Virus record (IMG/VR): IMGVR_UViG_3300045988_078625
DNA length: 64,000 bases
Source of the DNA: a virus
Strand: one strand, 5' to 3'
A model generated the notes under the pieces. The model worked only from the letters and a program-made list of their open reading frames with translations. It had not been told where the DNA came from and searched no databases. Every line of letters starts with the position of its first letter. Position 1 is the stretch's first letter. The position numbers were made by a program, and so were the translations under genes. This document shows, piece after piece, positions 1-42,628 of the stretch.

Positions 1-1518
1 AAACTCCGCTTTATCTGTGGTAGTATATACACTACTTATTTCATTCGCTGCAGTTCTTTGAATAACTACTCCATCTACGTTTGTCCAAATGTCTCCAAAT
101 GGATTATCAAAGCCTCTCCAACGAGGTACTTTAAAAGTATGAGTAGCCACTGTACTAGTTCCATCTGTTGCAGTGCATCCTGGGATAACTAAATCTTTAA
201 CTCCTGTGAAATTACCAATATCGTTACAGTGACCGCATGGAGTAAGAGGATAAGTTCCGTTATATCCAGACCAACTTGTGGCAGAATTACTCCAATCCGT
301 AACTCCGGGTCCAAGACCTCCCTAATGATAACCATCAGCAGTAAGCTCTGCCTCATATGTAGCCTAAGAGTTAAAGTTAGCATATTCTATTACATAATTC
401 CAGTAGAATATCCACTTGTAATATTCGTAACATAGTAATTCAGAACCTGCGTTTGTAGCATAAGTTCTCATTGTGGCTCTGGAAATATTCGTTCTTGGTT
501 TTCCTAAGTCGCTTCTGAAAATATCTTTAGTCTCCAGCTCAGTAGTCAAGTACTCGTCGAACTATGCTCTATTTCCACCTCCTCTAAATGCTGTAGTAGT
601 ATTAACTACTGATACAGCCTTTGGAGTTGCAGATACTGTAGTATCAACTGTGCTTCTATATGCATCAATTAACAATTCCGGTATTTCAACCCAAGAGTCG
701 TCTATCTTAACAGTTGATTCTCTTACCCATCTTTTATTTCCATTGGAACCAGACTTACCATAGAACTTAGGAGTGTTAACCCTAACAGTTCCTTCACTAC
801 CATCAAGCATAGAGGGAGTAGTACCGTCTTCCTTATAAGCCCAATTATCTGGATGTAAGAAATAGTTTATATTAGCTCCATTGGCTACGCATCCCCTATA
901 AGCAGACTGAATAGGAAGTGATTTATGCAGTAACGGGTTTCCAATTCTGGTGAGAACCGGAGAAGATACAGTTATATCCCATTCTACTCCATAGGAGTAA
1001 AGATCTGCGTTACTAGTCATAGCTGTTACCTAACTATCTAAATTTTGCTAAGCTTTCTGAAGTTCTTCCCAAGCCTCATTAAGTGCCTAGAATTGCTAAT
1101 CTAACTTAGTGCTAGAATCTGCCCATTGAGCAGTACCATCATTAGAATAAGTTAAAATCTATCCTGCTGCTCCTCCAGAGGGAATATGTTTGTATCCGGC
1201 TGTAGTTGGGTGTTCATAATTATTTGCACCATCTTCTACACCCTAAAGCTTCTATTTTTCTAATTCAGTATAATTAGCTTCGGAAAGACCTTTTCCTAAT
1301 TCCTTGTCTACTTTTTCGTCTATCTATTCTTTAGTTGCTAAACCACTAATGTCCTAATGTTCTGTTAGGTAGTTTTTATCATTACTTAACTATGATACTT
1401 TAGTCGGAATAGCACTAGATTTAGCATAGATCTCGGCAATATTGTTGCCAGAACCATCATAAGTAGCCTTTAAGTCGTATGTAATTTCTCCTACCTTTAT
1501 AGATTTGATAGCTGCCAT
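1..1518 (-). CDS. Tail fibre protein; the gene's 5' part lies in this window (ATG at 1516-1518) and its C-terminal coding end runs off the left edge; translated with TAG read as Gln
   Basis: Minus-strand frame is continuous through many in-frame TAG (cta) codons. The N-terminal region has the phage tail-fibre collar motif SQLSNDKNYLTEHQDISGLATK. ORF-track fragment 562..1020 is an internal piece. Confidence 0.5.
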
Positions 1519-1519
1519 A

Positions 1520-1729
1520 TTACTATATTATTAAAGTTTCTTCAACTACATCATGATCTATTCCTTCTATGGAAGCAGTTAAGTCCTCAACAGCTTTCTG
1601 AAGTTCTGCTTTAGTAGCATAGTTCTTGAGAGTATCAGGATCTACTCCAGACCCTCCTACACTACCACTAACAACTTTTACAGGCTTAGCAGAGCTTTTA
1701 AACTGTCCGTCAATATAAATTGTTCCCAT
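1520..1729 (-). CDS. Small hypothetical late protein that ends with TAG followed immediately by TAA
   Basis: Matches ORF 1523..1729 (MGTIYIDGQFKSS...). Its ATG overlaps the upstream gene's TAA by one base. Confidence 0.45.
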
Positions 1730-1734
1730 CTTGT

Positions 1735-3603
1735 TTAAAATATTAATTGTTCATTTGATTCATCTACTGATGCACTGCCCGAACCAGGCTATATTGCATC
1801 TATCTTTTTCTATAATTCGCTTACAGCTTCCTGTATCAAAGCTTCTACCTCTGCTTTAGTATAGTACTTTTCAGTAAGATATTCGCTTCTAACATATCCT
1901 GTATCCTATATATCTTTTTCTCCGTAAGTACAGTAATAAGTATCGTTCTCTGTCTTATTATTTTCAACTAGGTTATCATAATCAGTCTAGGGTAAACATA
2001 CTAATTTTGGAACTTCTTCAATAAGAGCAACTTGTTTACCTGATGCTAATAACCTATTATCTTCAGTAGTAAGATTAATAGAGCTTTCAATAGTTTGCTC
2101 TATTACTATATCTCCTGAACTTTCTTCAGTTGTTCCCTATTGTACTTCTTTTTCTACAATTTTCTAAATAGTAATGTCAGAAGTTTCTATCTATTCTGAT
2201 TTTAATAGCTTAGTATTAAATTCTTGGGAAGCAGCAGTCTAATCCTATTGATATTTATTCTAAGTAACAAATATAAAGTCATCATCACCAGTCTCGGGAG
2301 AATCTCCTCTCAAACTATCCTTTGTTACATACTCTTCTGCTATCTATCCAGACAGCTCCGTTAATGACTACTAGGTAGCGTATGTAGATTGAGCATTCTC
2401 TTTTGTAAGAAACTTTTCATCTACCTATTGACTAGTGTAATATGCTTTAATATCTTCTGTAGTAACGTAGCTCCCAAGTTTCTGTAAACCAGCAACTATC
2501 TCATCAATCTGAGATTTTGAGTAGTAGTTGGTAGCTACCCATGACTAATACTAATGAGTAGTATGGTAATTCTAATCTAGATACTCTTTAGTAATATAGA
2601 CTTTAGCGTCATTTGTCACGTCATACACATAATAGTATGTGTCAGGTTCTAGAGTACCATCTTCTACCAGTTTTAAATATTCCTCTTCAGTTAATGTAAC
2701 TAAATTTGGGACATCAGACATCATAGCAAATTGATCTTCTCCAACAAACAATCCGTCTGATTTAACATCTACTACTAGCTAATCCTCTCCTTCAATCACT
2801 GGAGATTTTATCTGTCCCACAGTAATACTTTCCAGGGAACCATCTCCATCTACTTTTAAAGTCTTATCTAATTCGCTCTAGATAGCCTACTAATCTTCGT
2901 CATATTGCTTTTTAGTAACAAAGACGAAATCATCTCCTTCTATTCCTTCCCCTCTAAGACTTTCCTTAGTAACAAATATATCATCTGTTTCCTGTTTAGT
3001 ATAGTGGTTAGACAGAGCTTTAGATAAAAGGGATTCTGGATCTTCCAAATCTAGGTCCGCCTTAGGAGCATAATTAGCAGTTAATTCTTCTAATGTTGCA
3101 TACTTAGAAAGATTCTAAATAGTCTAGTCTAAATCATTTCTAATCTATACAACTGTAGTATTAAGAGCTTTCTGCTTTAACTACTCTTCTATTTTCTTAC
3201 CCCATTCTGCTGATAGGTAAAACTAATTATCGTCTAGGCTGTCCTCATATATATAATAATATGTTTCAGCGTGAAGATATGTTTTATTCTCATCTATTGG
3301 TTTAAAATCTTCTGTAGTATTAGCAGACCATTCTTTATATTCAGCTTCTGTACAAGCTATTATCTGAATAGATTCATAAGACGCTTTCCATCCTTCTTTA
3401 TATTTAATCTTAGACTTATCAATAAGCATATAAATATTTCCGTTATCTATATTAGATACGGTCATGCCCTAATAAGCATATTTCTCTGGAATAGAATATA
3501 GCTCCTCTAGGTTATCAACTACTGTTCTATTATCCAGAGGCTTCGGAGTTTCTACGGTTAAACCAACACCTAGGGTAGCATCACCTGTATATTTAAATGC
3601 CAT
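1735..3603 (-). CDS. Large structural protein of about 622 aa, TAG-recoded, with an internally repeated DDFxFVTxxxY motif
   Basis: My manual reverse-complement translation is continuous through more than 20 TAG codons. Fragment 3223..3465 is internal. The stop is TAA at 1735-1737 and the start overlaps the upstream stop in an ATGA-style junction at 3601-3605. Confidence 0.45.
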
Positions 3604-5192
3604 TATTGTGATAGAATAAAGTTAATTTGGTGAGGTAGTGCTGAAGAGTAGGTATCCTTCTTAGTCCATACTTTATATGGGAATCCATTTATTTGTTCAG
3701 TAGAAGCTTCCCAACCATTCAGATCGACATTCAAATATCCCAATCCTCCATCTACTGTGAAGGAATTTAGCTGAGTATTACTTCCTGGTAGTTTTATAAT
3801 AGCCCTACCGCTTAACGAAAATGTAATAGTGCCAGAAGCCTAATTAAATGGAACTAAAGACTATTTTATTAGCCCATCAGTATTTCCGGAATACCAAGGA
3901 TAAGTAGCTGTTACTTGTGCAGTTGCTGATATAGAACCAGCTTCTACCCTCTTATCCGTGATTTCTCCCTTATTGTTTACTAGGTATTCTCCAGCAGCAT
4001 AGTTTACTGTACCAGAATGAGTATAAACTCCAATAGAATCATATGTAGCAGACTCTATAGGAGAACCGTTATAAGTAATAACTTCTTCTCTGCCAGTTTC
4101 TTCTCCTGCATCATTTTTTACGAAAGTTAAGGTTGGGTTTAGTAATGCGGTTCCTACTTCCACAATTTGGGAAGTAAAGCTATAATACAACTATGGATAT
4201 ATTAAATCTCTGACTACTGTTGGGAATAGTAAAGTATCTATGATTTCATTAAATGGTTTTCCTTTTAATTTTTCAACAGTAGTACCTTCTATAACAGTAG
4301 AAGTTGTATCATCCGGAAGTTCTGTCTAATAGGTAGCTATAGTTTCTAGACTAGTCTAAATATTTGTAATACTCTCACTATTAGTACTAACTTTTTCATT
4401 AGTCTCTTCCTAAGCTTTCTATACTTCTTCTATAGATTTCTAAGCTTCTTCTAACTAAGGTTCTAGATTCTTTACATAGATTCCTGGAAGAGTTATAGTA
4501 GAAGGTTCCCCTCCTTCTTCTGCAGGAGGTAATTCCTATTCAATTAAATGAATAGCATTATCATCCTGCTTAGAAAGAATAACTTCTATAGTATTATCTT
4601 CCTTTATCTCTACAGTCTTAGAGTTCTAAAGATTGTTTTTAATCCAATTAAGAATGTTCTTATCAACGTCTATATTTTCTATAGCAGCATTGATATTAGA
4701 TATTGCCTAATTAATTTCAACTATATCCTAAGACAAGTTATTTAGTCCTTCCCTATTAGTATCAATCTCTCTTTTTAGATCTTCTCCTAATACCTAAATG
4801 CTAGTCCTAATATTACTTATATCAACCTTTATCTCTTCTATTTCCTCAGTATTAGCCTCATACTAACTAATAAAAAACAATGCATAGTCTAATGCATCTT
4901 TTACAGTGTTAATATTCTCTGCAACATCGCTAGTATATGTCCATTTTTGTTCAATATACTAAACTAAGTCTTTCTAGGCCTCTATAGTTCCACTAATGTT
5001 TCCCCAAAGAAGACTCTACTCATCAGCAATTCCTAAGTTTTTTCTAACCTTAGCTCTTTCTAGTTCTGTTCTATATTCTCCTAAGTAATTATCTCTCAGA
5101 AGTGGTATAGGCTCACTTTTTATTAAATGTCCTTTCTTTCCACAAGGCTTTATGTCAGCATTGCTTACCGAAGTGTAAATAGGCTGTATCAT
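3603..5192 (-). CDS. Structural protein of about 529 aa, TAG-recoded, rich in coiled coil
   Basis: Fragment 3861..4190 is internal. Translation runs from MIQPIYTSVSNADIKPCGKKGH to ...INFILSQ and ends in TAA. Confidence 0.45.
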
Positions 5193-5347
5193 TATGATTT
5201 AATAGTTGCTATTTAATAAATTCGTGATTATCTAGTTTTACAGGTAGATTAATAAAACAGATTAAATTCAAAATATCTTGATAATCTGGTCTATATCCTT
5301 TCTTAATTCTTCCAAGAAACTCTTCATACCTTTTAATAGCCTTTCTT

Positions 5348-6079
5348 TTAAGAGCATCCACAACTTATATGTTTATGTCCATGATGGCGAGTATTGCAGA
5401 ATCCTCCACAAGTGCGGAACATTGCTAGCAATCTTTCAGCTTCCATGAATTGTTTAAAGCCTATTAAATAATCTATAATGTTGAGAGTCATCCAAATAAA
5501 ATCTCTGGCAAAAATATCTGCCTCATGTTCATTGGTAACACATTTATTTAGGAGTCCGTCAAATAATTTTTTACAATAATTAATATAGCACTATTGCAAA
5601 TTCCCTGTAAAGAATACATCTACCTTACACTTCTTGATAGTAGTGCCTTCTATGTTTCTTTCTAGAATTTCCTTTACCGTACACTCTTCTAACTCTCCTT
5701 CTACTTCTTTATATAGTTTCTCCCCATCTGTAACATAGATAGTTTCGTAGTATTCCTTATATTCATCAGATGAATTTTCATACCACTTCATATTAGGAAG
5801 TATTATATGATCTACCACATAATATCCATCCTCTTTTACTTTAAATGTACATGAATCTAAATCTTCTGTATGGTCATTTAAAAGGACATCTATTAGTGTG
5901 GCATCCCCTATACTTACCTTGATGATAGTATTTAGAGTAGCACTCTCACTATACTTATAAGAGTCGTAAGAAGTTACTACTTCTAAATCTTCATCAATAT
6001 ACTATCCATATTCTTTAGAGAAGTCTTCAATAGTTATTTCCCCAGTAATCTGGGTATGTATATCAATACTAAATTCCAT
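5348..6079 (-). CDS. Hypothetical late protein with a C-terminal Cys/His cluster, TAG-recoded
   Basis: Fragment 5591..5818 is internal. The C-terminus reads CGGFCNTRHHGHKHISCGCS and ends in TAA at 5348-5350. Confidence 0.45.
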
Positions 6080-6948
6080 TATTGTATAATTGACATCAAA
6101 TGAGGACCGTGCCATCTAACGTTATTTTCATCACTATTCAATACTCCGTTTACTGATGTTGCAGTAATCATCCACATTTTTCCAGTAAAATTATCTGGAG
6201 TATCGCTAGACCACTAACTTCCAGGATCGTCACTTGTAGTATTAACAGCTGGTTTATCTCCAGAAGTAATGGTATATCGTAACTCTAACTAACTGTCAAA
6301 TGCCCACCTACCGTATTGAGCTGGTTCAGAATATCTTTTCCATAATCCTTCTACTCTCTTACGTGTTGATATAAATACATATGGAGTAGCTGGACCAATA
6401 CTAACTGGAGTTTCTGACCAGCCTTCTGGTAATTTATTGTCAAAGGCAGTCAAATCTTCCTAAGTATTTCCTTCAGAGTCTAATATAGGATCTCCATATC
6501 CATCCTTTAGTATTGGATAAGTAATAACTGGTGCAACCCCAGTTGATCTTGCAATATAGATATTCTGAATTTTCTCAGCAATATCTGTAGCAACAATTTC
6601 GTAAATCTCATTAAGTTTAGCAGTGTCTCCTTTATACGTGTATAGAGTTTTCTTCCAAACATACGGTCTTTCTGAGTCTGGTAGTTCAAAAATATCACTC
6701 CATGTTGACAACTTTTTTACTTCGGATTCATCTTTGGTATTTGTTTTACAATAAGTAACTACTACCATGATATTACTAGCTGCTTCCGAGTCCCCACTTA
6801 GTTCTGAGACCTTTTTCCATAATTTTACAAGGTTGTCTTCTACATCTGACTTACTTCCAGAAGCATTACTAATTACCACCTCTGCATGAGAAATGGGATA
6901 TATTTGTTGCTAATCTTTATTATATACTATTGTACCTGCTGTAGCCAT
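6079..6948 (-). CDS. Hypothetical structural protein, TAG-recoded
   Basis: Fragment 6460..6879 is internal. The gene starts with MATAGTIVYNKDQQQIY two bases after the portal stop. Confidence 0.45.
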
Positions 6949-6949
6949 A

Positions 6950-9124
6950 TTAATGTATTTGTCTTACTTTATCGTTATATGGATTTCCGTCATGAAGCTA
7001 TGCTAACTCTATTTCAGTTCTCTTCTCTTCAATATCCATTTGTCTATCTTTGTAAGTAGAATCAGACTGAGCTTTAAGCCAATTAACCTTATACTCTAGT
7101 TGCATCTTCTACTGTTCTAGTCCAAGTTTTTGTTCGTCTAGCCTTTCTATTTTCTACTAAGCTTTCTCCAATTCCTATTGTAGTTGTTGTGCTTGCTATG
7201 AAGTTTCTTCCAACTTCTACTACAACTATTGTAATTGATTGTTCTCTTCTTTCTAAACCTGCATAGCTTTTTTAACCTTGTACTTTAAGTCTGTCAAACT
7301 CTTAGCTGTTAATGCTTCAAAAACTATACCAGCATCCATTTGCTAACTCTTAAGGAACTCCGGAATCATAGCTTTAATAGTCTATAAATCTTCCATAACT
7401 TCAGTGCTGGAGGTTATATGAATGTCAAAATCAGTCATTGTGAAATATTCAGGAAGGGCAGTAAATATCTACTAATACTTATCTCCCAATATAATAGTTC
7501 CAGTTAACCCTTTCTTGTAAGTTACTTTAGCCTAATTAAGACTATCTAATAATATTTCACAAGTTATCAAGTCCATTTGTTGGAAATAGTGTTTAGTTAC
7601 TATATAAGAGTTAGCGACTCCTTGCTTAATATTAGTTACAGCATCATGAGTCTCTATTCCATTAAGTCTTTCCCTAAATACTCCAGTTATAGATGATGTA
7701 GTCTATTCTACTGATTGAATAGCTAACTCAATAGCCTATACAGCCTACGCTTTAAGGGTGTCATCAAATCCATTAAAGATAGTATTTAAAGGAGCGTTTC
7801 CATTGTCATTTCTACCCTCCTAAGTAGTATCAACCCACTGAATACCAGCTTTTTTATAAGCTAGCCATTTCTATACTCTTTCTGGCCAATGTACTCCTAA
7901 GTTAGTAGGAAGTAATGACATATCCATAATAACTCCTGAGGTTCCACTATTAGCTATCAAGTTGTCTCTGTAATAGTTAAGTAAGTCATATCTATCCTGT
8001 AGATGTGCACACTTAAGTATTAAAGAATATGGCTACTGAGAACGATTTAGAAAATAAACTCCATTTACTGATAATGAACAAGAGTTAGGATCGTCTTTAG
8101 ACCTCATTGCAGTCTTGTCTAATCCTCTAAGAATATAGATTTCCTCTCCTATTCTTATAGTATTGTATCTCTGCATTTTGAAATCATCATCAGTCTCTAT
8201 CCACTCTACATCGTAGACCGGAATTAACTAAAATCTATGAGCACTATATTCATTATCTGGATACCCAGGAATGGTCTCATGATTTTGATCTTCATTAACC
8301 ACTGTACAAACATCTCCATAAACTCTTCTGTATACAGCAGCAGAATCATCTGCTCTCCATTCATCTTTTAACCTCTTTAAGTCTTCCCTAGATATTTCTT
8401 TACCATACTTAGCTAGTATTTGGCTTTTACTCATCCATTTTCTAATAACAACTCTATATGATTTCTTGACATATGGAGATTCTGGATTTCTATCAACAAA
8501 CGTATTTAATGGGTTAAGAACCTCTATCTCCACATTAGTTCCGGAGAAAGAAGACTTTACTCTAAAGAATGTGTATCCAGTAATTAGTAAGTCAGTTAAT
8601 AACTACCGCAACTTAGTAATAAGATCAGTTTCCCTAGATTGCATTAGGTAGTGAATAATGTTCTGCGCAGCAATTTCATACTGAGAAATGAATGACTAAT
8701 CAATATCCTATATAACCTTATCTAGCTGAGTCTTTACAGCTTTATCAGTAATATCTTTTCCGTCAATAAAGCTTAAGATAGCATTACTTAAGTGATCTTT
8801 TAAAAACTTAACTATTCCTTTAGTTATCTCTAGCTATTTTTCTCTGGTTATATTACTGATAGTATCTGAATCTTTGCAAGAGACTTTCGGGAGTATTGGA
8901 GTTCCTAGATATTCCCCTACTAAAGCATCTACATGCTTCTTAAGTAGTGGTGTAAATTCTACTGATGTAGGACTGCCTATTCCAAAATTCTCTTCAAGAT
9001 AGCGAAACTATTCTGGATCTCTTTTACCATTATAATAATTATAAGCTTTCTAAAGCTCATATTTATCATACACAAGTTCCGCAATAGCCTCGTTTGTTTT
9101 GTCTATCAATTCTTTCTCTTTCAT
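6950..9124 (-). CDS. Portal protein of about 724 aa, TAG-recoded
   Basis: Sits immediately downstream of the terminase large subunit. Fragment 8228..8533 is internal. Size and position match a crAss-like portal. The C-terminal tail is very Gln-rich when TAG is read as Gln. Confidence 0.5.
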
Positions 9125-9321
9125 AACATGTATTATGTTGTTCTGGAGGAAGCTTAGTGGCGTTATAATACTTAACTCTCTATAACTTCCTACTTCTTAA
9201 TTCTTCTTTAATAAAAGGCAGAAATTCATCATCGGGTAAATCAGCTATGATTACTAATGGCATCTCAGACCTGTCAAAGTTAAAAGATATTTTGTAACCA
9301 ACTGGATTCAAATCCTCAATC

Positions 9322-11682
9322 TCAAGTCCGCCTATATATTCCATTTGGTATAAGTCTCTCATATACTCTAGGATCACTTGTTTCAATTCTGTATGGGTCA
9401 TCGTATTCATCGTCTTGCATATTTAATTCTGGAGTTTCGCTAGTTGGTATAACTCCAAATCTTTTTATTCCTCTCTCATCGTAATAATAACCAAAATCCC
9501 TGAACAATTCAACTTCTTTTTCCACAACTATAGGTTGTCTTCCTGATAACTCTTCGTCTGCTAATTCTGTCATACCCATAGCTGCTATAATATCGAACTT
9601 ACCTTTATTCTCGTCATTATATCCAGTAAGCTATTCCAACATTTCTTCAAACCATATAGTATGACAATAATCTTCCACAAACGCAGCAGTTAGATCAGTG
9701 TGTTGTTCTATAATAGTTTTAGTAGCTGGAGTTCCATACTATTTAGTAGTTCCATTTTTAACATCAGTAAGAGTAGCTCTAGGACGTTTCATAAAGTAAT
9801 TCAAACATTTCTTTTCTCTAGCCCAGGTAATCATACCAACACGAGTTGCTTCTATATTTACCTTACAGTTGTAGTATCTAAGTAAACACATAGCTATTTT
9901 GTAAGCCTCTCGAATGTCTCCAGGTCTGTCCTTATACATTGCTACATACTATGGCTCACTCATACCAAATGCCCTTCTCTTAATAGTTATACAGAAGTCA
10001 GAAGGATCTTTAGTTTCCTTCGAGGTCTAATTAGCTCCTATATCAATACCGTCTATTCCTGCAATATAAAGATTATGCATTTCTTTATATACAGGTGCTT
10101 CAAATTCCTCTCCTCTTTCCTCTGCTTCCTATCTAAGTTTATCCATCTACTCCTTATATAGGTCAGACCATACTGGATGTTCCAGAATCTTTACCTTTCC
10201 CTTAGTATTAGGAATCCACTTAAATCCATCAATGTTATCAGCAGTGTGTTTATTATTTTTATAGAAGTAATCTATATAACCACATTCTGGTCTGGGACCT
10301 ATTTTCTTTAGTCTTATATTAGCTAATTGATCAGAAATAAGAATTTTGTTAAACTTGTTAACACCTTCTAGATTGAAGGCTTCTTCTGCATTCCAACAAC
10401 GTTCAGCACACTTCTTTAAATAGTCATCGGGTACTGCTAATAGATTATCTCTTTCTTCCTACAGATACTTCTTATATTCTACGGTATTACATACGCCTCT
10501 ATGATCCATGTATTCGGAGTTCAAAGACTGTACAAAATATGGAATAAAGAATCCACTCTCAATAGTAGTCCCATCTTGAGTATAATTATGTCTAAAGGGA
10601 AGAACTTTGTAAGCTTTTGGATTATAGTAAATCTTTTTAAGACCTGCTAATGGAGCACCCATATCACCACCAGTACCTCCAAACAACATTGTTCCACGAG
10701 GCTTACCCTAGACTTCACAAAGTTCTTGTCCTTGTACCACAGCAGTATCTAATCCTGGCCAAGACCCTGCTTCGTCATATATTAATAAGTCAACACGGTC
10801 TCCACGAATATTAGATGGTTTAGCTCCATTTATTCCTACTACTTCTGATTTAAATCCAACATCTTCAAACTATCCGTTTACTTTAACCTACTTACCAGAC
10901 TTCTTTCTTAAATCCTGGTCAATTAGACGAAGCTTAAAGAATCCTCCACCTGTGCAAGTATTTAAAAATGTTAGAGCATTATCAAACTTACTAAATGTAC
11001 CTTTAAGGAAGGTATCATTAAAGCAAGTAATCATTACTCTACTTCTTCTAATTACAGAATACATACGAGCGGATAGTGAGGCATTTATTTCTGAGAATCC
11101 GATTGAACGAGCCTTCATTAAAGCTGCATGTCTATGTAGTACTCTAGCCATTTGTAAGTAATGGAAGAACATGTAATGGGATGCAAAGAATATAGGGAAG
11201 TCACTATTAGTTCCTTCACCGGATGCTTTATTATCATCAATAATAGGAAGCTAATAGAAATTTAAGAAGAAATAGTTATCTCCAGTAATAGTATAACCAT
11301 TAACTGTCATTCCATATTTACATCTTCTGTACTACTCTTTCCAAAATTCATTGTATCTCTTACTGTCTTTTAAGTAGGGACAATACTTCCCAGTCTTTCT
11401 GTATACTTCTCTGGTTTCGGTGAACCATTCGGGATTAAAGTCCAAACCATGCGTTTCATCAATAGGTCTATAGCCAGTTATCTCATAAGACAAAGTAGGG
11501 TCAAAAACATCTATCTTGTCTCCTTTCTTGACGTCCCAATAGTCTGCACTTTTGACCCTTTCTTCTCTTATTTTCTATACTAGCTCTCTTGCCTCTACAG
11601 CATCTTCTTTATGTTCTTTTTCTCTTACCTAATCTACTATAGTCTATAGTTCATCAGGTAATATCTTTTTCTTTCTTGGCAT
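9322..11682 (-). CDS. terL: Terminase large subunit of about 786 aa, TAG-recoded
   Basis: Fragments 9322..9579, 9739..9939, 10459..10689 and 10888..11172 join into one frame through TAG. The ATPase region contains LLIYDEAGSW as a Walker-B-like motif, and the C-terminal RNase-H-like nuclease region contains IAGIDGIDIGANQ. The real stop is TGA at 9322-9324. Confidence 0.65.
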
Positions 11683-11684
11683 AA

Positions 11685-12245
11685 TTAAAATTCTCCAGGA
11701 TCAAAACCATCTGTAGCCCCTCCTCTAACGGTAGACTATTCAGTAAGTTCTTTTTTAACCTCATCTTCTAATGTAATTAATTCTTCGTGAACTTTATGAA
11801 GGCTAGCCATTTCCTTCATTACTTTCTCAGCAGAGAATACTGGCTTTCCACTAGTGTCACGTTCATTTAAGTCTACAATAGTATCGAAGTAATCAATAAA
11901 CTAGTCAGCAGCTCTTCTAGCAGCTTCTAATAATTTAATTGATTTATTTGAGTCCTATAATGCTCTATATTTTCTACATGCTTCCCTAAATATCGGATCA
12001 TTAAATTCTGATTCTGTTAATCCAGAATCATTAATTGCTTCATCGTGCCTTTCATATTCAGAGTACTAGCTATACGGACTCTTCCAATCAATAGCTAAAT
12101 AAATGTATGATAGTTCTCTAATTGCTCTATCCTTTTCCACAGATTTATCTCTTTGCAGTAAAGCTTTAAACTCTTTAACTAGAAGAATCTCTGGTTCATT
12201 TATTTCTAACTATTTAGTTAAAGTGTTATAGTTAAATACATTCAT
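11685..12245 (-). CDS. Putative terminase small subunit or packaging protein of 186 aa, TAG-recoded
   Basis: Lies directly upstream of terL with its stop two bases before the terL ATG. The identification rests on position only. Confidence 0.35.
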
Positions 12246-12278
12246 AATCATTAATCATTAACATTCGACAATCTTTTC

Positions 12279-13493
12279 TTACTTCTTCATTTTAGAGCCA
12301 CACTTGCTTACTTTCATTTTAGAGCCACAAGCATCCTTTTTAGTATATTGCTTTCTATCAGGAACCCATTTTCCCTTTTGGAAGTTTCCTTTATGTCCTT
12401 TATTAGACATGGTTTCCTAATCATTATATTTATTAATAGATATAGAATCTCTGGAAGCTTCATCTTTCGCTGATTTCATATCTTTCTTATACTGTGCTCT
12501 TCCTTTCTTAAATTTGTCTACCTCGTTACCTTTTACCTTAGCACCTTTCTAAGCTTTCTGGCAGGCTTTACAAATTCTACCTCCTTGTTTAAAATAAACA
12601 AGTTCTTCCCCTTCTGGGCAAACTCCTTTTAATTTTTTATAGTACTCAAGCTTAGCTCCTAATCTAGCCATAACTCCACCTTGCATTTTTTGCATAAATT
12701 CCTGGTATTTGGCTTTAATTCCGTCTTCTCCTAATTGCTGAGCATATTGTTCTAAATCCTACTCAGATTGTAATTGTATTCCTTGTGCTGCGGCATCCTG
12801 TATTAAGTATGCCATAAATGCTTTTTGTAATTCTTCCTAATTAGCCATTGCTCCTCCTTGTTGATATTTAACTCGTTGCTATCTAGCAGTTGCCTTTGGT
12901 ATATGTTCCCAACTTCTCTAATTTTTGAGCTATTCTGGAGTTAGTTTCTGCCCATACATATTAGTTGTAGGCGGCTTTATCCATTGTTCTTGGATAGTTC
13001 CAGTATGCTCTCCAGTTTCCTAGTCTACTTGATTTTGGTACGTAGTAGCTCTTTTTCCGTCTTGACTATATGTAACATAGGGATTATTCATTACTGGAGT
13101 TCCTACCTCTACTGTTGCTTTCTTTCCATTAGCTAACTATGTTCCATACACTCCTTTCCCCCATTTGAATTGAGTTAGTCCTCTCTTTCTGGCTTCTCTA
13201 AATGCTGTACCAAACCCCTAGACTCCTCTTAAGTCGTCGTTTTGAATTTGTTGCTAAGGTGCATTTATTTTCTTAGGAATAGTAGGAGTAGACGGCTTTA
13301 ATCCTAATATAGGTTTTTGTTGTATAGCTGGCACAGCACTTCTTTTCTTCTACTATGCAGTATTTCTAATAGAGTTCGGATTACTTTGCCAAGTCTAATG
13401 CAACTGTTGTAAAGTTCTTCCGTCTAACTCTGCGTCTCCATATATAGTCTTGATATGCTACATTAACTCTGGATCAAATTGTATTTTCGCCAT
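12279..13493 (-). CDS. Gln-rich hypothetical protein of about 404 aa with CxxC pairs, TAG-recoded; the first gene of the recoded block
   Basis: Manual translation starts MAKIQFDPELMQHIKTIYG and ends ...CGSKMKK with TAA, passing through about 25 in-frame TAG codons that read naturally as Gln. Confidence 0.5.
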
Positions 13494-13703
13494 TATTCTT
13501 CTACTTTAATTAAGTCTTTTGTATTAAATACTGCTTCTTGCATCAGTCCAGAATCAGTAAACCATCTACATCTAAGTCCGCGCAATCCCTGGTTATCTTT
13601 AAATAATGCTGATTCCCTTCTCAGAACAAGCATTACTGGAGAATGCATTACCTTACACTACCGTAAAGTAACACAATCCCCAGGTTTGAAATAAACTTTC
13701 TCA

Positions 13704-17784: not shown

Positions 17785-17801
17785 AGCTATTAATTTTGGA
17801 G

Positions 17802-17873
17802 TTGCCCTACTAGGATTCGAACCCAGACTAAATGATTTAGAGTCATCTGTGCTGACCATTACACCATAGGGCA
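17802..17873 (-). tRNA. Amber-suppressor tRNA with anticodon CUA, derived from a Gln tRNA
   Basis: Acceptor stem TGCCCTA/TAGGGCA, D-arm GTGT-AATGGTCA-GCAC, anticodon stem GATGA/TCATT with loop CTCTAAA, T-arm CTGGG-TTCGAAT-CCTAG. The overall architecture is almost identical to tRNA-Gln(TTG) at 33537. Confidence 0.75.
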
Positions 17874-18841: not shown

Positions 18842-19291
18842 ATGAACTTAGAAGAATTGAAAAATCAGAATGTGAGTATAGAAGAACGCGCGAAAAGCGT
18901 AGTAAAAGACTTAGGCTTGAATGGTGATGAACGTTCGGTTGTGATTGGCTTGAAAAAGGGGGACAAATTCTCCCTTGCTGCCATGAACAAAGTAGAATTA
19001 ACTACACAAACTCAGCAAAGAGAAGGACAAGCCCGTTTTATTCCTATTACTTTCACAACTGATAACGGTGCATCTATCGGCGCAAAACACTTTGCAGGTG
19101 TGGAAATCGACGAAAACGCTCCGGCTGTTGGTAGCACACCGTTGGAAAATGCAAATTTCCTTGTTTGGTGTATAGACCACAAAGTAGTATTTTCAATCAA
19201 AAGTATCAGCACAGAGGACATTCCGAAGTCGGATACAACTCCGGCTTACGTAAAGAAAACTTACAAACTTGAGGTTGAGGATTACGAGTAA
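18842..19291 (+). CDS. Hypothetical early protein encoded in a local patch of higher GC
   Basis: ORF in the track. It is the first plus-strand gene after the divergent region. Confidence 0.5.
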   Translation: MNLEELKNQNVSIEERAKSVVKDLGLNGDERSVVIGLKKGDKFSLAAMNKVELTTQTQQREGQARFIPITFTTDNGASIGAKHFAGVEIDENAPAVGSTPLENANFLVWCIDHKVVFSIKSISTEDIPKSDTTPAYVKKTYKLEVEDYE

Positions 19292-19297
19292 AAGATT

Positions 19298-19319
19298 GGG
19301 GAGAAATCCCCTTTCTTTT
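19298..19319 (+). terminator. Intrinsic terminator
   Basis: Hairpin GGGGA-GAAA-TCCCC followed by TTTCTTTT. Confidence 0.55.
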
Positions 19320-19342
19320 AAATACAAATAGTCTTTGTAGTT

Positions 19343-19543
19343 ATGAACACAAGAGAAAAGTTCAAAACTAAAAAATGTTTGTATCACTGGGGAGCCGTCT
19401 ACGACCCAGAGACAGATGAAAAGTTAAATTTCAAAGCCGATAGAGTTTATTGCAAAACCTCTTGGGCTTGGATTATGACTTATCAAAAGTCAGAAGAAGA
19501 TATTCCGAAGATAGTAAGAATAGTCTTTATAGATGAACCCTAA
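19343..19543 (+). CDS. Hypothetical small protein
   Basis: ORF in the track. Confidence 0.4.
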   Translation: MNTREKFKTKKCLYHWGAVYDPETDEKLNFKADRVYCKTSWAWIMTYQKSEEDIPKIVRIVFIDEP

Positions 19544-20265
19544 GGTATTATGGGTTTCAAAATAAAATACCCACATGAACTCCATCATCGGACCATTGGT
19601 TAACGGAGAAAACAACAAAACAAAACAAAAACTTCAAAATCAATTCGTCGTAGTTATTTTATTTTAGTATTATATTAAGTAATGTGGTTCTAATGTAGAT
19701 TGGGACTATTGTTGCACGTGAAAATATGGTAAGGGTTGAGAGAAATTGTCCACTAAAAAGACAGCCGATTTTCCGACTTTTTCCAGTTTTCAAAAAATCG
19801 CCAGTAGGATGAGTTTTATAACACATACTACAATGATTATTTACTCTAACATTTGCCTATAAAAAGGTAACAAAAAGCGGGTTACGCAGAAGAACCCAAT
19901 ATCCGAAAATAACTGCTACGATTGTAATGTGTATATTCGCAAACTTGAACACTATTACAAGAGGATTGAGCCATATGAATGGTCACTTATGGCAATATTA
20001 CAAAGTACCACTGATATGCTGGTAGACCAAAGTATATCACCTATAAGTATTCGTATGTAATATTGGAAGTTGCCTGAAGTAAGCCATCAGATAGATATAG
20101 GCTAGATAGTAAGAGAGACGCTCATAAGGCGTCATTTTCCATCTCGAATCTATTCGCAAGTTTTGAGATTAGCTACCTCAGAATTTAGTGAACGTTGATA
20201 ACGTTGTATGTCTGGAAAACATACTAAATAATCTCCTATCTTATACTAGTTGTCAAGATAGGATT

Positions 20266-20336
20266 TCCCCATTAGTATAATGCTATTGCGCCTTCCTCTA
20301 AAGAAGGAGATTCTGGTTCGAGTCCAGAATGGGGAA
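20266..20336 (+). tRNA. Amber-suppressor tRNA with anticodon CUA
   Basis: Acceptor stem TCCCCAT/ATGGGGA, anticodon stem CCTTC/GAAGG with loop CTCTAAA, T-arm TCTGG-TTCGAGT-CCAGA. The D-stem is short at 3 bp. Confidence 0.65.
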
Positions 20337-20624
20337 CTTGGTATTTGAGGACTACAACTACTTGTAGACTCTGTTGCAGTTAAAGATTATAATGGGTACG
20401 CCCTGAGACTAATGCAGAGCATCTCTTATGAATAGAGGTGTCTTATCGTGAGATAAGGCAAAGTATTGTGAGATTGTACTAACAATCGAAGACAATCTTA
20501 AATGATTGTAGGCACAGGATAATTCATCTTCTTTTATCGTACATAGTGGTGCAGGTTGTTGAGAAACAATTGTGCATACTGGGAGACTTAGGTCTCCTAC
20601 TCCCAAGATAAGAACAACCGTTAC

Positions 20625-20849
20625 GTGGTTTGGGAGATAAGTAAGCTTACTAAAGCTGAAACTAATAGTTCAAAAACAATTAAAAGAAAAATTACCATGG
20701 AAGAAAGACTGAAACGTATTGAAAAGTTCACAAAAGCAATGAGAGAATTACTAGCTAAAATGTTAGAAGAAGACCCAGATTCAAGTAGCAATATCTACAA
20801 AGAAATATGGGGAGCTTATACTGCTGGGATGAACTCCTTGCTCGAGTAG
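20625..20849 (+). CDS. Hypothetical small protein
   Basis: ORF in the track, inside the ORF-poor region. Confidence 0.35.
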   Translation: MVWEISKLTKAETNSSKTIKRKITMEERLKRIEKFTKAMRELLAKMLEEDPDSSSNIYKEIWGAYTAGMNSLLE

Positions 20850-21017
20850 CAACAATTCCAAGCTTGGTGAATTAAAACTAGCTAACCTAATTACTCTTTA
20901 TAAGGTTGAGAATGTAAAAAGAGAATTGGAATGGTAAGCCCATCTCCCTTCGTCCTTTGCTGGTTTAGAAGTGAAACAGAAACCAGCACTTTTTAGTAAC
21001 TTATAAACTTTTATAAT

Positions 21018-21509
21018 ATGAATACATTAGCATTAGATCATGTAAACAAGCGCGCAGAATTCGTAATGTCGTTTACTATTCCTTTCAAAGCAGTTGAAGA
21101 TCCAACGTCGCAGGCCAAGTGCTACAGTCCGCATGAAGTAATTATGGCATGGCAAGAGGTATGCATCAAAGCATTACGAATGAGAATCGATGCTTGTATG
21201 GAAATGTTGTTCCGCAACAAGGACAGAGTGATAGGCTCGGACGAACGTGGCGTTTTGTTTAAGAAGAAGAATGGAAATATTCACCACTTTTCTCATGCTA
21301 GCTGTTTTGCTATGGAGGCTTTCATAGAGATATTGGAAGAAGCAGAGAGTGCTGGGGACATAACTTTCGATGCTCTTCAAATACAGCAACTGATGAAGGC
21401 TTTGTACTGGATTCCAGATGAACTGAAGAACGATCATCAGGGAATAGGTTTTGGAGAACTAATTGACTGCTTGCTCTGCATTTTTAGCAACTCTCTGATA
21501 AACGAGTAG
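21018..21509 (+). CDS. Hypothetical protein that ends with TAG
   Basis: ORF in the track. The stop is TAG at 21507-21509, followed by a palindromic hairpin at 21510-21530. Confidence 0.45.
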   Translation: MNTLALDHVNKRAEFVMSFTIPFKAVEDPTSQAKCYSPHEVIMAWQEVCIKALRMRIDACMEMLFRNKDRVIGSDERGVLFKKKNGNIHHFSHASCFAMEAFIEILEEAESAGDITFDALQIQQLMKALYWIPDELKNDHQGIGFGELIDCLLCIFSNSLINE

Positions 21510-21511
21510 GA

Positions 21512-21591
21512 ACTATCGTTACGATAGTTCTAATAGTTTCATCATTTAATTAGCATATGAAATATAAGATTGAATTTAACTATCGTTACGG
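21512..21591. repeat. Direct repeat of the 13-mer AACTATCGTTACG (copies at 21512 and 21579); the first copy is part of the perfect palindrome GAACTATCG-TTA-CGATAGTTC
   Basis: Seen directly in the sequence, immediately 3' of gene 21018..21509. Confidence 0.5.
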
Positions 21592-22825
21592 TAAAGACTA
21601 TGTATACTGTAATGAGTACCATGAAGATGAGCGGTTCATACAGCCACTTAACTCTAACGGCAAGCCTTTATGTACTATCGCAAAGACCAACATAATAGCT
21701 ATTAAAGAGTGTAAGTAACTAAACAGAAAGCCAGCGCTGTAAAGACTGGCAACCTGGTTTAGCTCTTCTGAGTAGTTGCAAATACTTAGAATCCCTACAT
21801 CACAAAACGGACATAATGTATGTAGTGCCAAAAGTTAAACGTTCCTGCTTCATGCGTTAAAGCAGGAGTCCACATGATTGTTTTAATTATATTAATCTTT
21901 AAGTTTTAAACAGCGTCCTACATTGTAGGTTTCGGTAAGGCTCCTCTGCCGAGTAATGCGTACAAGAGCTATGATAGACTCACAAAGAAAATGTATTTGC
22001 GAGTAAATAATGGTGAAATCACATTGCTTTAAGTAGTAATGTGGGGACCATTCCGCCCTATTTGCAATTATGAACTGCATAGTGACAGAGACCTAAGAGA
22101 GGGAAGCAAATGAGCGTTGTTATCGTAGCGAAAGCTGCGTTCCACCATTGTACGTAGGGGTGTGTGGGTAATCGGCTAAAGGAACGTTCTGTTATAGTAT
22201 GTTGCGAGTACTGTGGCACAAGGGATAGCATGGCGGCTCGGAAAGACGAGCTTTACTTGCTGGTAGGATAGTTTAAACCAGTAGTGCTGTATCTTTTCGG
22301 CGGTTTACTAGTAACGCACTTAAAAGTTTAAGGACAAACCGTACAGGAAACCAATTCCGATTTATAAGTTTGGTGACAACTTGAAAGAGAGTGACAGCCT
22401 GGAAAGACAGGCACTATATTCGTTACTAATAATATAGATCCAGTATCAAAGGGCCGTGGATTGATACATGTCGGATTAATATGACGGTTTACGCTACTCC
22501 CTGGGCAAGAATAGTATAACGAAGTCCTAAAAGATTGTGTATACTCTAAACTTTAGAGGATTGTGCTATACACTCTATAATCCGAAGTATTCGCACAGTA
22601 CAAACTTGGATAGACGAAGTACAAGTCTAGACCTAAAGTTCTAAGTTATCTTAAAGAAGAGGATTATAAGGACTTTAAAAAACTCAATAACTTCCCAAGA
22701 CATTGAGGGCACCAGTTCTTTCATTCTTTCGTGGGAATACTACATGATTACAGTAGTATATTAGCGAAAAGGTAATCGTAATTGAATGAAAGTTTAGGTG
22801 TAAAATGCAAAAAAAAATTTAGATT

Positions 22826-23623
22826 ATGGAAAACTTAACAAACTCAGCAATCAAATGTAAAACGGTTAGAATTTACCCTGAAGACGCAGAAAGACTTTAT
22901 GGGAAATCTAAAGGTAATAGAACTATTAATAGAAGTAGGGTAACTGAATACGCCAACCTGATGGCATCTGGAAAGTGGGAATTAAATGGAGAATCCATAA
23001 TACTGGATGAGAATGGAGACGTGTCTGACGGCCATCACAGACTGTTAGCGTGTATAAAAGCTAACACACCCTTTGATACTATTCTCATTACAGGTGTGCC
23101 GAGAAAAACATGGACTACAATAGACCAAGGCAAGAGTAGGTCTATGGGAGATGTATTTGGCATAGCTGGGGTAACAGATTCCTTAGTAAAGGCTGCAATT
23201 GTTGGCAAACACATGTTGCTAAAAGACCAATTAAAGTCATTGGACGAAGGGTCTTATAGTAAACTAAGGAAGAAACATACTCCGGAAGATTTACTGACAA
23301 TTTACCTTGACAACCGTCTTATATATGATTGTTGTTCATACATTGGTAGTACTGCCGTCAAGAATGGATTGAAAGGAGTATGTGGAGCATCTATTATAGG
23401 GGCTGTATCAGCCTTATTGATTATTTCTCTAGAGCATCCCGTCAAAACAGTTTCAACATTCTTTGAATTGCTAGCATCTTCTGGAAAACCGGTGTACAAG
23501 CAGGCTAGAAACATGATTGCTGCAACTAGCAGGAATGTAGAAAAGATTGAAGTAATCAATAAAGCATGGAACATGTATTGCAACAAAGAAGAAGATGTTA
23601 CTATAGTAGCCTTCTTTAGGTAA
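22826..23623 (+). CDS. Protein with a ParB-like nuclease domain
   Basis: Contains the hallmark DGHHRLLA motif of the ParB/sulfiredoxin fold. Confidence 0.5.
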   Translation: MENLTNSAIKCKTVRIYPEDAERLYGKSKGNRTINRSRVTEYANLMASGKWELNGESIILDENGDVSDGHHRLLACIKANTPFDTILITGVPRKTWTTIDQGKSRSMGDVFGIAGVTDSLVKAAIVGKHMLLKDQLKSLDEGSYSKLRKKHTPEDLLTIYLDNRLIYDCCSYIGSTAVKNGLKGVCGASIIGAVSALLIISLEHPVKTVSTFFELLASSGKPVYKQARNMIAATSRNVEKIEVINKAWNMYCNKEEDVTIVAFFR

Positions 23624-42029: not shown

Positions 42030-42543
42030 GGGCCTACTTGGATTTGACAGGCGATTACGAATTATAAGGACGTGTAGAGCGCAATCTCTCTAAACGAAGG
42101 AAAACAATAATTGCTACTTATAGCGAAGTAAGAATGGCAGCTTAAGCTGTGGCTTATTAATATTAACGTATTAGTATAGTCGGGTTAACGGAGAAGACCT
42201 AGAAACAGAAGAGGTGTGGGAAGAAGCATATAGGGCAGCCCACTTAACTTGAACGCCAAAGGTTAGTAAAGCTGAAATTCTCCATTGCCTATCTATAGGT
42301 TACAAATAGACGTTCTCCAACGTAAATGGAGGGGTAGAGAAGAGACCCCTGGTCCTCTAAGTTTGATAGTTTGTTGTATAGTTAAGCGGAAAGGTGCTAG
42401 ATGAGTCCGCTTGCAAAGAATCTAGCTCTTCTATGAAAACTATCTAAATGCTAGAACTCACTAGCTGATGTAATAAAAATGAGACGCACGTTATCCTTAT
42501 AACAAGGGTTGTTTGGACACGGGTTCGACTCCCGTTAGGTCCA
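42030..42543 (+). ncRNA. ssrA: tmRNA-like (ssrA-like) RNA
   Basis: The 5' end GGGCCUA-CUUGGAUUUGACAGG parallels the E. coli tmRNA 5' end GGGGCUG-AUUCUGGAUUCGACGGG. The 3' end GGACACGGGTTCGACTCCCGT-TAGGTCC-A parallels GGACGCGGGUUCAACUCCCGCCAGCUCC-A. The two acceptor strands pair over 7 bp. A tag-like reading frame GCT ACT TAT AGC GAA GTA AGA ATG GCA GCT TAA (ATYSEVRMAA) starts about 84 nt from the 5' end. Confidence 0.6.
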
Positions 42544-42628
42544 CTACTATCGCCCAAAGGACGATAAGTATGGCGAGAGACTTGTTCTTCTAATCGCAAT
42601 GCCTGAAGTTGCGCACTCTACTTGCGGA

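Follow-up and report, generated by a model that had tools for sequence, protein, structure and literature searches.

No phages are more abundant in the human gut than Crassvirales. What we searched of the reviews and genome papers on them covers proteins, introns, tRNAs and recoding, and mentions no island of non-coding RNA (ncRNA). The name RAGATH, given to certain RNA neighbourhoods, is defined in PMC11061315. In the crAss-like phage phi14:2, the intergenic regions g004–g005 and g005–g006 undergo rightward, early and persistent transcription, above that of most genes (bioRxiv 10.1101/2020.03.07.982082). Theta ribozymes, a minimal form of HDV-like ribozyme (HDV, hepatitis delta virus), connect RNA structure with the maturation of suppressor tRNAs in gut phages that recode (Kienbeck et al. 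2024, PMC10879173), and GOLLD and ROOL are large ornate ncRNAs of phages and prophages, often located beside tRNA genes and perhaps co-transcribed with them (PMC5737381). Here, we analyzed a 64,000-nt stretch of viral DNA (IMG/VR virus record IMGVR_UViG_3300045988_078625, the window hereafter), whose segment 19544–22825 carries a RAGATH-14 RNA, an amber-suppressor tRNA and a series of further hairpin-rich elements on one strand.

Our results make it likely that this segment is an ncRNA island with which a large crAss-like phage begins its rightward, standard-code transcription unit. The sequence-only reading of the window had listed a cluster of structured ncRNAs among its possibilities, and this is the one that the analysis bears out: RAGATH-14 scores above its threshold, the tRNA is genuine, helices are kept through compensatory changes in at least three elements (the cassettes M2 and M4 and the terminal motif, described below), and relatives carry ribozyme arrays. 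Only RAGATH-14 and the tRNA are already catalogued; the remainder, including a widespread motif outside Rfam, adds new members to a known kind of locus. Open reading frames (ORFs) were listed under four genetic codes over 19000–23500, and neither 19544–20696 nor 21719–22825 contains a credible ORF, whether read with the standard code or with TAG or TGA recoded. The same reading had described two stretches as ORF-free. For 19560–20265 this was correct, with no ORF of at least 115 aa under these three codes; for 21510–22825 it was correct over 21719–22825 and wrong over 21557–21718, which is a real 53-aa gene with mostly synonymous substitutions. Relatives proved to keep non-coding, conserved and covarying sequence for most of the region, rather than ordinary genes or filler. 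The raised GC content attributed to the region did not hold up: its 37.4% compares with a window mean of 35.9% (standard deviation 2.2 over equal-sized segments), 26% of such segments are at least as rich, 19560–20265 reaches only 34.1%, and the region is richer only than the left arm (33.5%).

The phage is a large zeta-type crAss-like phage of ~185 kb, judged from its relatives. The closest IMG/VR relatives are contigs of 100–192 kb, the size range of the zeta group, and a megablast search of GenBank phages found no close relative of the window's arms. Gene orientation and the sign of the GC skew switch together at about 16–19 kb, left of the region, as emerged when the skew computation suggested earlier was run. 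The island starts directly after two small + strand genes past this divergent strand switch, and all of its recognisable elements lie on the + strand. Only in the left-arm genes, which run in the opposite direction, does TAG serve as a sense codon. Left-arm ORFs (- strand) open only with TAG read-through and contain 13–28 in-frame TAGs apiece, with 28 ORFs of at least 200 codons when TAG is read through vs 16 when it is not; right-arm ORFs contain 0 in-frame TAGs. The contrast spans 1–13505 (- strand, TAG sense) and 24448–58350 (+ strand, standard code).

The left part of the island (Block 1, 19544–20696) comprises the following elements:

19552–19608, + strand: two leader hairpins, GGGT..ACCC (19552–19572) and CTCC..GGAG (19580–19608)
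19709–20064, + strand: A-block, a conserved domain of ~360 nt located 5' of RAGATH-14
20065–20237, + strand: RAGATH-14 RNA (RF03145), found with the Rfam covariance model
20235–20262, + strand: hairpin CCTATCTT..AAGATAGG, ending 3 nt before the 5' end of the tRNA
20266–20337, + strand: amber-suppressor tRNA, anticodon CUA, found with ARAGORN and the Rfam tRNA model
20338–20696, + strand: D block, a hairpin-rich trailer of ~360 nt

The RAGATH-14 match, at 166.3 bits, exceeded the gathering score of 149.1 (E=7e-31) and covered model positions 1–190 of 190; all helices are present in the alignment, and the terminal hairpin is ~20 nt shorter than the consensus. The family was also found in nine related loci. 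Its end lies 28 nt from the suppressor tRNA, which scored 56.5 bits against a threshold of 29 and carries the anticodon CTA on the + strand; the sequence-only reading had likewise placed a suppressor tRNA in the region. The Rfam scan which that reading recommended yielded these two RNAs and nothing else in the region at E≤10.

Conservation continues beyond the Rfam model of RAGATH-14, for ~360 nt on its 5' side and 25 nt on its 3' side, with modest covariation. Ten homologs, representing about three lineages at 65–77% identity, revealed conservation all the way from the preceding stop codon to the tRNA, and compensatory changes in several of the hairpins. The leader hairpins, which come straight after the stop codon of the ORF 19343–19543, are kept in all ten, with a change from CTCC/GGAG to CCCC/GGGG; an A/C-rich tract containing (AACAA)3.4 lies 3' of them (19609–19640). 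The A-block combines long invariant single-stranded runs, e.g., GCCTATAAAAAGGYAACAAAAAGCG, TTCGCAAACTT and GGTCACTTATRGCAATAT, with several covarying stems. RNAalifold modeling gave 41–45 pairs, five of them with changes on both sides, from sequences that amount to only ~3–4 lineages, and the covariation support for this domain is modest. Its signature 25-mer is present in 29 IMG/VR contigs, nearly all of 100–192 kb, and in 14 of 14 copies scanned (13 related loci and the window) the A-block lies 211–212 nt upstream of the point where RAGATH-14 starts. The hairpin next to the tRNA has compensatory variants in relatives (TCTATCTT/AAGATAGA and CCACCTT/AGGTGG) and could be either a 5' leader of the tRNA or a 3' extension of RAGATH-14.

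In one relative (L010, about 3290–3345; L numbers denote related loci) the homolog of the suppressor tRNA carries an internal deletion, and in another (L029, about 1710) the tRNA and the following 335 nt are precisely missing, with RAGATH-14 retained. A second amber-suppressor tRNA (anticodon CTA) is encoded at 17801–17873 on the - strand. The two are identical at only 47 of 75 positions, so neither is a recent duplicate of the other; a tRNA occupies the place equivalent to 17801–17873 in L041 and L008.

The D block shows the lowest mean folding z-score of the region (-2.35) and holds a GNRA-capped stem, CTTATC-GTGA-GATAAG, and the hairpin GGAGAC-TTAG-GTCTCC. It has only three distinct homologs, with three pairs showing double changes, and its homology is piecemeal, the part 20389–20497 being found at other positions in other phages. 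The D block of the window has no Rfam match; in L008, the equivalent place holds a RAGATH-1 hammerhead.

The right part of the island (Block 2) is a variable array with these elements:

21730–21750, + strand: hairpin GCCAG..CTGGC (loop ..GTAAAGA), at which the array begins on the left
21753–21973, + strand: cassette M1, ending in the hairpin GGCTC..GAGTAATGCGTAC..GAGCT (21939–21970)
21974–22251, + strand: cassette M2, ending in the hairpin GCTCG-GAAAGA-CGAGC (22236–22251)
22252–22419, + strand: cassette M3, ending in the hairpin GCCTG-GAAAGA-CAGGC (22397–22412)
22420–22677, + strand: cassette M4, with eight helices, including the CTCTAAACTTTAGAG hairpin

Local BLAST against 120 related loci was used to map this array, and revealed that 21753–22673 is a mosaic of four cassettes, each common to a different set of phages at 84–98% identity. 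Cassettes are shared, at 92–98% identity, with phages that are otherwise 70% identical to the window or unalignable to it, and one of these phages has a Suoliviridae-type ribozyme array and nothing else in common with the window. The closest relative (L074) is 97% identical up to 21752, has ~920 nt replaced by ~160 nt, and resumes at 22674. In L041, L010, L011 and L119, the homolog of the 163-aa gene of the window is followed within 25 nt by the terminal motif (22676). The boundary hairpin 21730–21750 is retained, with changes, in relatives.

Cassette M4 is a well-supported structured RNA. Its alignment (A3) comprises seven distinct sequences, those of cr53_1 and cr128_1 among them, and contains 50 pairs with 96.8% of cells paired. 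Both-side changes affect 14 pairs vs 6.4±1.5 in shuffles and 0–2 in slid controls, and on four of five measures the observed value was reached by 0 of 500 shuffles. In the alignment, G.U cells number 38 and A.C cells about 6, an excess that indicates a + strand fold. The CTCTAAACTTTAGAG hairpin, pointed out earlier from the sequence, lies at 22544–22558; the many local hairpins reported with it are likewise real, several being backed by covariation. M2 is common to L095, L087, L037, L019, L120 and L027 at 95–98% identity, and RNAalifold gave 81 pairs, seven with changes on both sides; M2 and M4 are the two cassettes whose covariation is strong. M3 occurs in 12 other loci (84–99% identity) and, unannotated, in the GenBank records cr55_1 and cr10_1; its covariation is weak, with one double change. 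M1 is common to L120 and L027 only, at 87–92% identity. Its covarying stem was seen as GGTTC/GAACC and GATTC/GAATC, and the case for M1 as a structured RNA, made from three sequences, is weak; the type of hairpin in which it ends stands directly 5' of the terminal motif in other phages. Every cassette ends in a hairpin, two of them of a recurrent TGGCN-stem-GAAAGA-stem type found 31 times on the same strand vs 11 times on the opposite strand. A sigma-54 reading of TGGCA-N-GAAAGA was rejected for its wrong spacing, and by eye the conserved boxes do not fit the Bacteroides -33/-7 promoter consensus.

The island closes with the terminal motif, which consists of a 38-nt core, a variable domain and a 3' box:

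22678–22808, + strand: terminal motif
22683–22688 with 22702–22707, + strand: P1, CTCAAT/ATTGAG, with a 13-nt loop
22709–22713 with 22797–22801, + strand: P2, GCACC/GGTGT, followed by an internal loop
22718–22726 with 22784–22792, + strand: P3, CTTTCATTC/GAATGAAAG, closing the variable domain
22795–22808, + strand: 3' box TAGGTGTAAAATGC, 14 nt

The exact 38-mer core was detected in at least 119 IMG/VR contigs and a variant core in 37 more. Core and 3' box show hardly any variation over at least 150 viral contigs, which belong to at least two families of Crassvirales or are of zeta type, and the box lies 20–150 nt downstream of the core in 111 of 121 copies. The inserts between them are of at least 28 unrelated kinds, always closed by a helix in the same register. 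This helix, P3, is kept in 51 of 51 distinct versions, and four of its six pairs covary (0 of 500 shuffles). In the corresponding alignment (A4), 97.5% of cells are paired vs 89.9% in shuffles, with 48 double-change cells vs 15.6±2.7 (0 of 500). P1 and P2 are possible in all variants and show one-sided changes only, from C-G to U.G in P1 and from G.U to A-U in P2. Positions 22694, in the loop, and 22709 are C:G in at least 119 contigs, U:A in 38 and U:G in one, and never C:A; this is suggestive of a tertiary pair and is confounded by linkage. A covariance model that we built for the motif detected one copy in the window (84.8 bits) and one per related locus, and no Rfam family resembles the motif at E≤10, searched with the region and with a minimal 146-nt copy. 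About 12 GenBank Crassvirales records (Suoliviridae, Steigviridae) carry it, every time in an unannotated gap right of the strand switch. Among 185,579 prokaryotic genomes there were five matches, all in metagenome-assembled genomes or short contigs; the motif is absent from real host chromosomes, and a host origin was rejected. Fremin et al. 2023 have 8,495 unnamed IMG/VR candidates, and the motif may be one of them.

Several further features of the motif were noted. The 3' box reads AGGTG-N5-ATG (GTG in three variants), like a ribosome-binding site and start codon, and the ORF following it in the window would read MQKKI, with a TAG stop 4 nt before the real start codon. A Shine-Dalgarno/start-codon reading was rejected, since the mini-ORFs that would follow are unlike one another in length and sequence, and no such motif stands upstream of the two gene starts inspected (21018 and 22826). 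In many loci (L124, L126 and others), the next gene is preceded by a terminator-like hairpin or by two of them, AAGGATA..TATCCTT with a T-rich run behind it, ~25 nt past the 3' box; they are absent in the window. Such a combination of motif and terminator-like hairpins is compatible with a discrete small RNA and also with an attenuator/antitermination leader. The motif lies at most 5.3 kb from a record end in 5 of 12 GenBank records (cr53_1, cr128_1, cr109_1, cr113_1, MT835473), where roughly one would be expected for arbitrary starts, and the island may be near a physical genome end in some lineages.

An Rfam scan was run on 17 related loci. Their equivalent arrays contain hatchet (14 copies), pistol, RAGATH-1 hammerhead, RAGATH-6, -7, -9 and -14, and tRNAs, all co-oriented. 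This indicates that the region of the window belongs to the ribozyme-rich RAGATH neighbourhoods, here in Crassvirales. L001 (cr53_1), L087, L019, L121 (cr115_1), L123 (cr55_1), L005, L041 and L008 contain several unannotated hatchets, up to four per 14 kb, and the same set also has pistol, RAGATH-1 hammerhead, RAGATH-6, -7 and -9 in early-region arrays. An unannotated gap of 0.5–2.2 kb lies right of the strand switch in cr53_1, cr115_1, cr118_1, cr55_1, cr6_1 and cr128_1. Covariance models of hatchet, pistol, hammerhead, twister and twister-sister were applied to the window, and no known self-cleaving ribozyme was found in the 64 kb at the gathering threshold or in 19200–23000 at E≤10. At the terminal motif, upstream sequences fall into 42 types, inserts into 28 and downstream sequences into 35, with 86 combinations among them, and the two junctions show 19 and 14 four-gamete quartets. 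Together, the combinations and the quartets indicate that recombination has occurred inside both conserved halves of the motif.

Small protein-coding genes separate the two blocks, and a larger one follows the island:

20697–20849, + strand: 50-aa gene, with its true start at ATG 20697, not 20625
20959–20994, + strand: terminator-like hairpin GCTGGTTT..AAACCAGC followed by a T-run, read from the sequence
21018–21509, + strand: 163-aa gene
21510–21530, + strand: perfect 10-bp palindrome GAACTATCGTTACGATAGTTC, just 3' of the stop codon of the 163-aa gene
21557–21718, + strand: 53-aa gene, MKYKIEFNYRYGKDY...
22826–23623, + strand: 265-aa gene (phrog_5931) with a DGHHR motif, the first gene past the island and its right boundary

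The ORFs 20625–20849 and 21018–21509 had been described as foreign-looking, a view that their conservation in related phages contradicts. The 50-aa gene has 55–100% amino-acid identity in relatives by tblastn and is called as a 50-aa gene on a contig in ENA; Pfam gave no match to it, and in PHROGs the ORF, when read as 74 aa, had a single marginal match (phrog_990, E=0.006). The 163-aa gene has 12 tblastn matches in nine related loci (37–99% amino-acid identity) and no match in Pfam or PHROGs. Between the two, the hairpin 20959–20994 sits in a 168-nt intergenic gap; its three homologs are near-identical, which leaves covariation uninformative. The 53-aa gene differs from its counterparts in L074, L108, L002, L061 and L101 almost solely by synonymous substitutions, the proteins being 89–96% identical, and is annotated as a hypothetical protein in cr106_1. 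The palindrome GAACTATCGTTACGATAGTTC was located where the sequence-only reading had put it, and the second copy of its left arm, AACTATCGTTACG, lies at 21578–21590; with one mismatch allowed, the 13-mer has three matches in the window vs 0.06 expected. This second copy falls within the 53-aa gene, in the codons for N-Y-R-Y-G. In relatives the palindrome is imperfect and the repeat only ~10 nt long, so the pair is a window-specific detail and not an iteron. Iterons or operators built from the 13-mer and the palindrome were rejected on this lack of conservation, and the palindrome is probably a transcript-end hairpin rather than part of a conserved repeat system.

Right of the island, the DGHHR motif in the product of 22826–23623 resembles ParB-type nuclease domains by eye, with no match in Pfam, and a 319-aa ORF (24454–25413, phrog_24834) has a sub-threshold radical-SAM match (25.4 bits; cut-off 29.5). 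An array of 25–27 tRNA genes follows on the + strand (25466–49732), interspersed with genes; tRNA-Met-like genes are present three times, and there are pairs for Cys, Gly, Arg, Leu and Ser. A tmRNA-like gene lies within it (42030–42546, + strand; RF00023, 68 bits vs a threshold of 47; ARAGORN gave no call), and the relative L027 likewise has one (84 bits). In total, the window contains 27–29 tRNAs plus the tmRNA-like gene.

We propose that the island would be transcribed rightward, early and abundantly, like the two long early ncRNAs of phi14:2, and that its transcript would be the source of several stable RNAs, each folded on its own. In most cassettes a hairpin with a U-rich run behind it forms the end, which makes them look like small RNA genes or processing units. 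RAGATH-14, the ~360-nt domain upstream and the hairpin abutting the tRNA may form one large RNA, a unit of ~550 nt, that would most likely affect, in cis, how stable the suppressor precursor is or how it is processed; the notion of flanking RNA controlling suppressor maturation is borrowed from PMC10879173. The suppressor tRNA made from the island could then permit translation of the UAG-containing late genes. The terminal motif may be a leader that acts in cis on the downstream operon, or a discrete small RNA binding a conserved host component, and its two invariant halves may also serve as homologous-recombination junctions that reassort upstream cassettes, internal domain and downstream genes.

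A more ambitious reading of the terminal motif, which we consider quite unlikely, is that it represents a new functional RNA class with a demanding tertiary fold, being either a self-cleaving ribozyme, at home in arrays that also house hatchet, pistol and hammerhead, or a cis element that captures a conserved host machine. Such a machine could be RNA polymerase, in a put-like antitermination, or the ribosome, and the invariant halves could at the same time be the recombination junctions by which RNA cassettes are shuffled between crAss-like families. Compatible with this reading are the 52 almost invariant nucleotides, most of them outside Watson–Crick helices, a distal stem free in length and sequence, the restricted combinations seen at positions 22694 and 22709, and the lack of an Rfam family for the motif.

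Several points weigh against an RNA island acting in the proposed way. Transcription, RNA ends and processing are all inferred. Folding z-scores, computed against dinucleotide shuffles, separate the region weakly, with means of -1.0 to -2.4 for non-coding vs +0.4 to -1.5 for coding sequence, and scans for sigma-70 promoters and intrinsic terminators did not rise above shuffles, the consensus being unsuited to Bacteroidota. M1, M3, the D block and the A-block come from few independent lineages with little covariation, and P1 and P2 are almost invariant, so that covariation cannot probe them. The extreme identity of the 38-mer could stem from recent horizontal spread rather than constraint. In L029 and cr53_1, RAGATH-14 occurs without an adjacent tRNA, which weakens a tRNA-specific role, and the window lacks a known self-cleaving ribozyme that would cut the array into units.

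An explanation that accepts the RNA island and differs on function only is that the cassettes form a counter-defence or host-takeover arsenal of trans-acting decoy or mimic RNAs, directed against host immunity or RNA machinery; examples would be antitoxin-RNA mimics, CRISPR-repeat mimics and tRNA-like decoys. RNA-based anti-defence is established in other phages, through pseudo-ToxI and RNA anti-CRISPRs. An arsenal would explain why the cassettes are variable, horizontally exchanged and placed early: they turn over rapidly, are shared across lineages and are combinatorially reassorted, and their early-region position follows by analogy with phi14:2. Moreover, variable blocks of small unknown genes in Crassvirales are suspected to be a defence armoury (PMC10136315). 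However, the core motif has no counterpart among the prokaryotic genomes searched, and no cassette is tied to a particular host defence; we regard this explanation as unlikely.

Two further explanations were weighed. According to one, the region is a DNA-level element, namely a replication origin and/or an adjacent physical genome end, and the hairpins and invariant sequences are DNA sites, such as hairpin promoters for a virion RNA polymerase as in phage N4, or recombination sites. The switch of skew and orientation just left of the region, the A-rich tract 19609–19665, the five of 12 GenBank records with the motif near their end, and the junction-like behaviour of the conserved motif halves all agree with it, as do the terminal repeats of crAss001 and the comparison of the crAss-like virion RNA polymerase with that of N4 (PMC10136315). 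Yet the skew changes where the direction of transcription does and is therefore no specific mark of an origin, and the iteron check suggested by the sequence-only reading was negative, with no direct-repeat family of more than two copies and (AACAA)3.4 as the only tandem repeat. G.U pairs are tolerated on the + strand only (M4), which would be unexpected for a double-stranded protein-binding site, and the tRNA, RAGATH-14 and the self-cleaving ribozymes of relatives share the same arrays and the same strand. We find a DNA element very unlikely as the explanation of the region itself; an origin could nonetheless adjoin an RNA island, the two being compatible. The other explanation is decay into pseudogenes, intron remnants or unconstrained intergenic filler. 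It would account for the ORF-free blocks and for ~0.9 kb being present or absent between 97%-identical relatives, so that part of the region is dispensable, and delta and zeta Crassvirales are rich in group I introns (PMC10136315), with one located 3 kb downstream in cr118_1. The remnants of a self-splicing intron that the sequence-only reading had envisaged did not materialize, as no intron model matches at E≤10 and the flanking ORFs are complete and unsplit. Cassettes that remain 84–98% identical across unrelated backbones, with helices kept by compensatory change, a 38-mer invariant in at least 119 contigs and a RAGATH-14 above its curated threshold leave decay with almost no credence.

Taken as an RNA island, the region resembles the RAGATH neighbourhoods in its bona fide RAGATH-14, its density of conserved structured RNAs and its origin in gut-metagenome sequence. 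It differs from them in that the window has no known self-cleaving ribozyme and in that the arrays are fixed at the head of the rightward Crassvirales operon, beside a code-switching tRNA. The open-access literature that we searched contains no account of RAGATH arrays at this Crassvirales position and no paper tying hatchet or pistol to crAss-like phages. RAGATH-14, an orphan RNA, can now be placed at the start of a standard-code operon beside the code-switching suppressor tRNA, and the relatives place hatchet, pistol, hammerhead and RAGATH-6, -7 and -9 at that position too. This concrete setting, together with cultivable crAss-like isolates, offers a route to the role of these ribozymes and RAGATH RNAs. 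In addition, the analysis provides new RNA candidates: the motif with the 38-nt core, the extended RAGATH-14 unit of ~550 nt, and the cassettes M2 and M4.

Like the window, phi14:2 (Drobysheva/Sokolova et al.) has long ORF-free early regions in a crAss-like genome; there the host is a marine Cellulophaga and expression, running the same way as the early genes, has been shown, whereas no RNA structures or cassettes are described. The theta modules share with the window a structured RNA that adjoins an amber-suppressor tRNA in a TAG-recoding gut phage. Unlike in these modules, the adjoining structure in the window lies on the 5' side of the tRNA (RAGATH-14 and the leader hairpin), and no HDV-like fold was detected at the 3' end of either suppressor tRNA (Rfam at E≤10 for 20266–20337; a loose descriptor of our own for both, with 0 candidates). 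In comparison with GOLLD and ROOL, the unit of A-block and RAGATH-14 differs in sequence and in predicted helices, with no Rfam match to these families.

The terminal motif invites a comparison with pistol (RF02679) that is an analogy of topology only: a 5' hairpin is followed by a hairpin with an internal loop and a variable distal stem. The P1 loop could pair with the 5' strand of the internal loop (AACU with AGUU) in a pseudoknot that has no covariation support, and a G-U step is found at the junction of P3 and the 3' strand. In contrast, the pistol model fails even at E≤10 on the 146-nt input, and the conserved pistol linker is absent; a pistol proper is located ~450 nt downstream of the terminal motif in L041 and L008. 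As to its arrangement, the array differs from integrons in having neither an integrase nor an attC-like site, its cassettes being RNA genes and its junctions parts of a folded RNA. What it has in common with integrons and with the boundary or linker sequences of mosaic phages is that short conserved sequences flank interchangeable modules, with four-gamete tests showing exchange on both sides of the variable domain. The analysis shows that the shuffling of cassettes between phage families involves RNA genes as well as protein genes.

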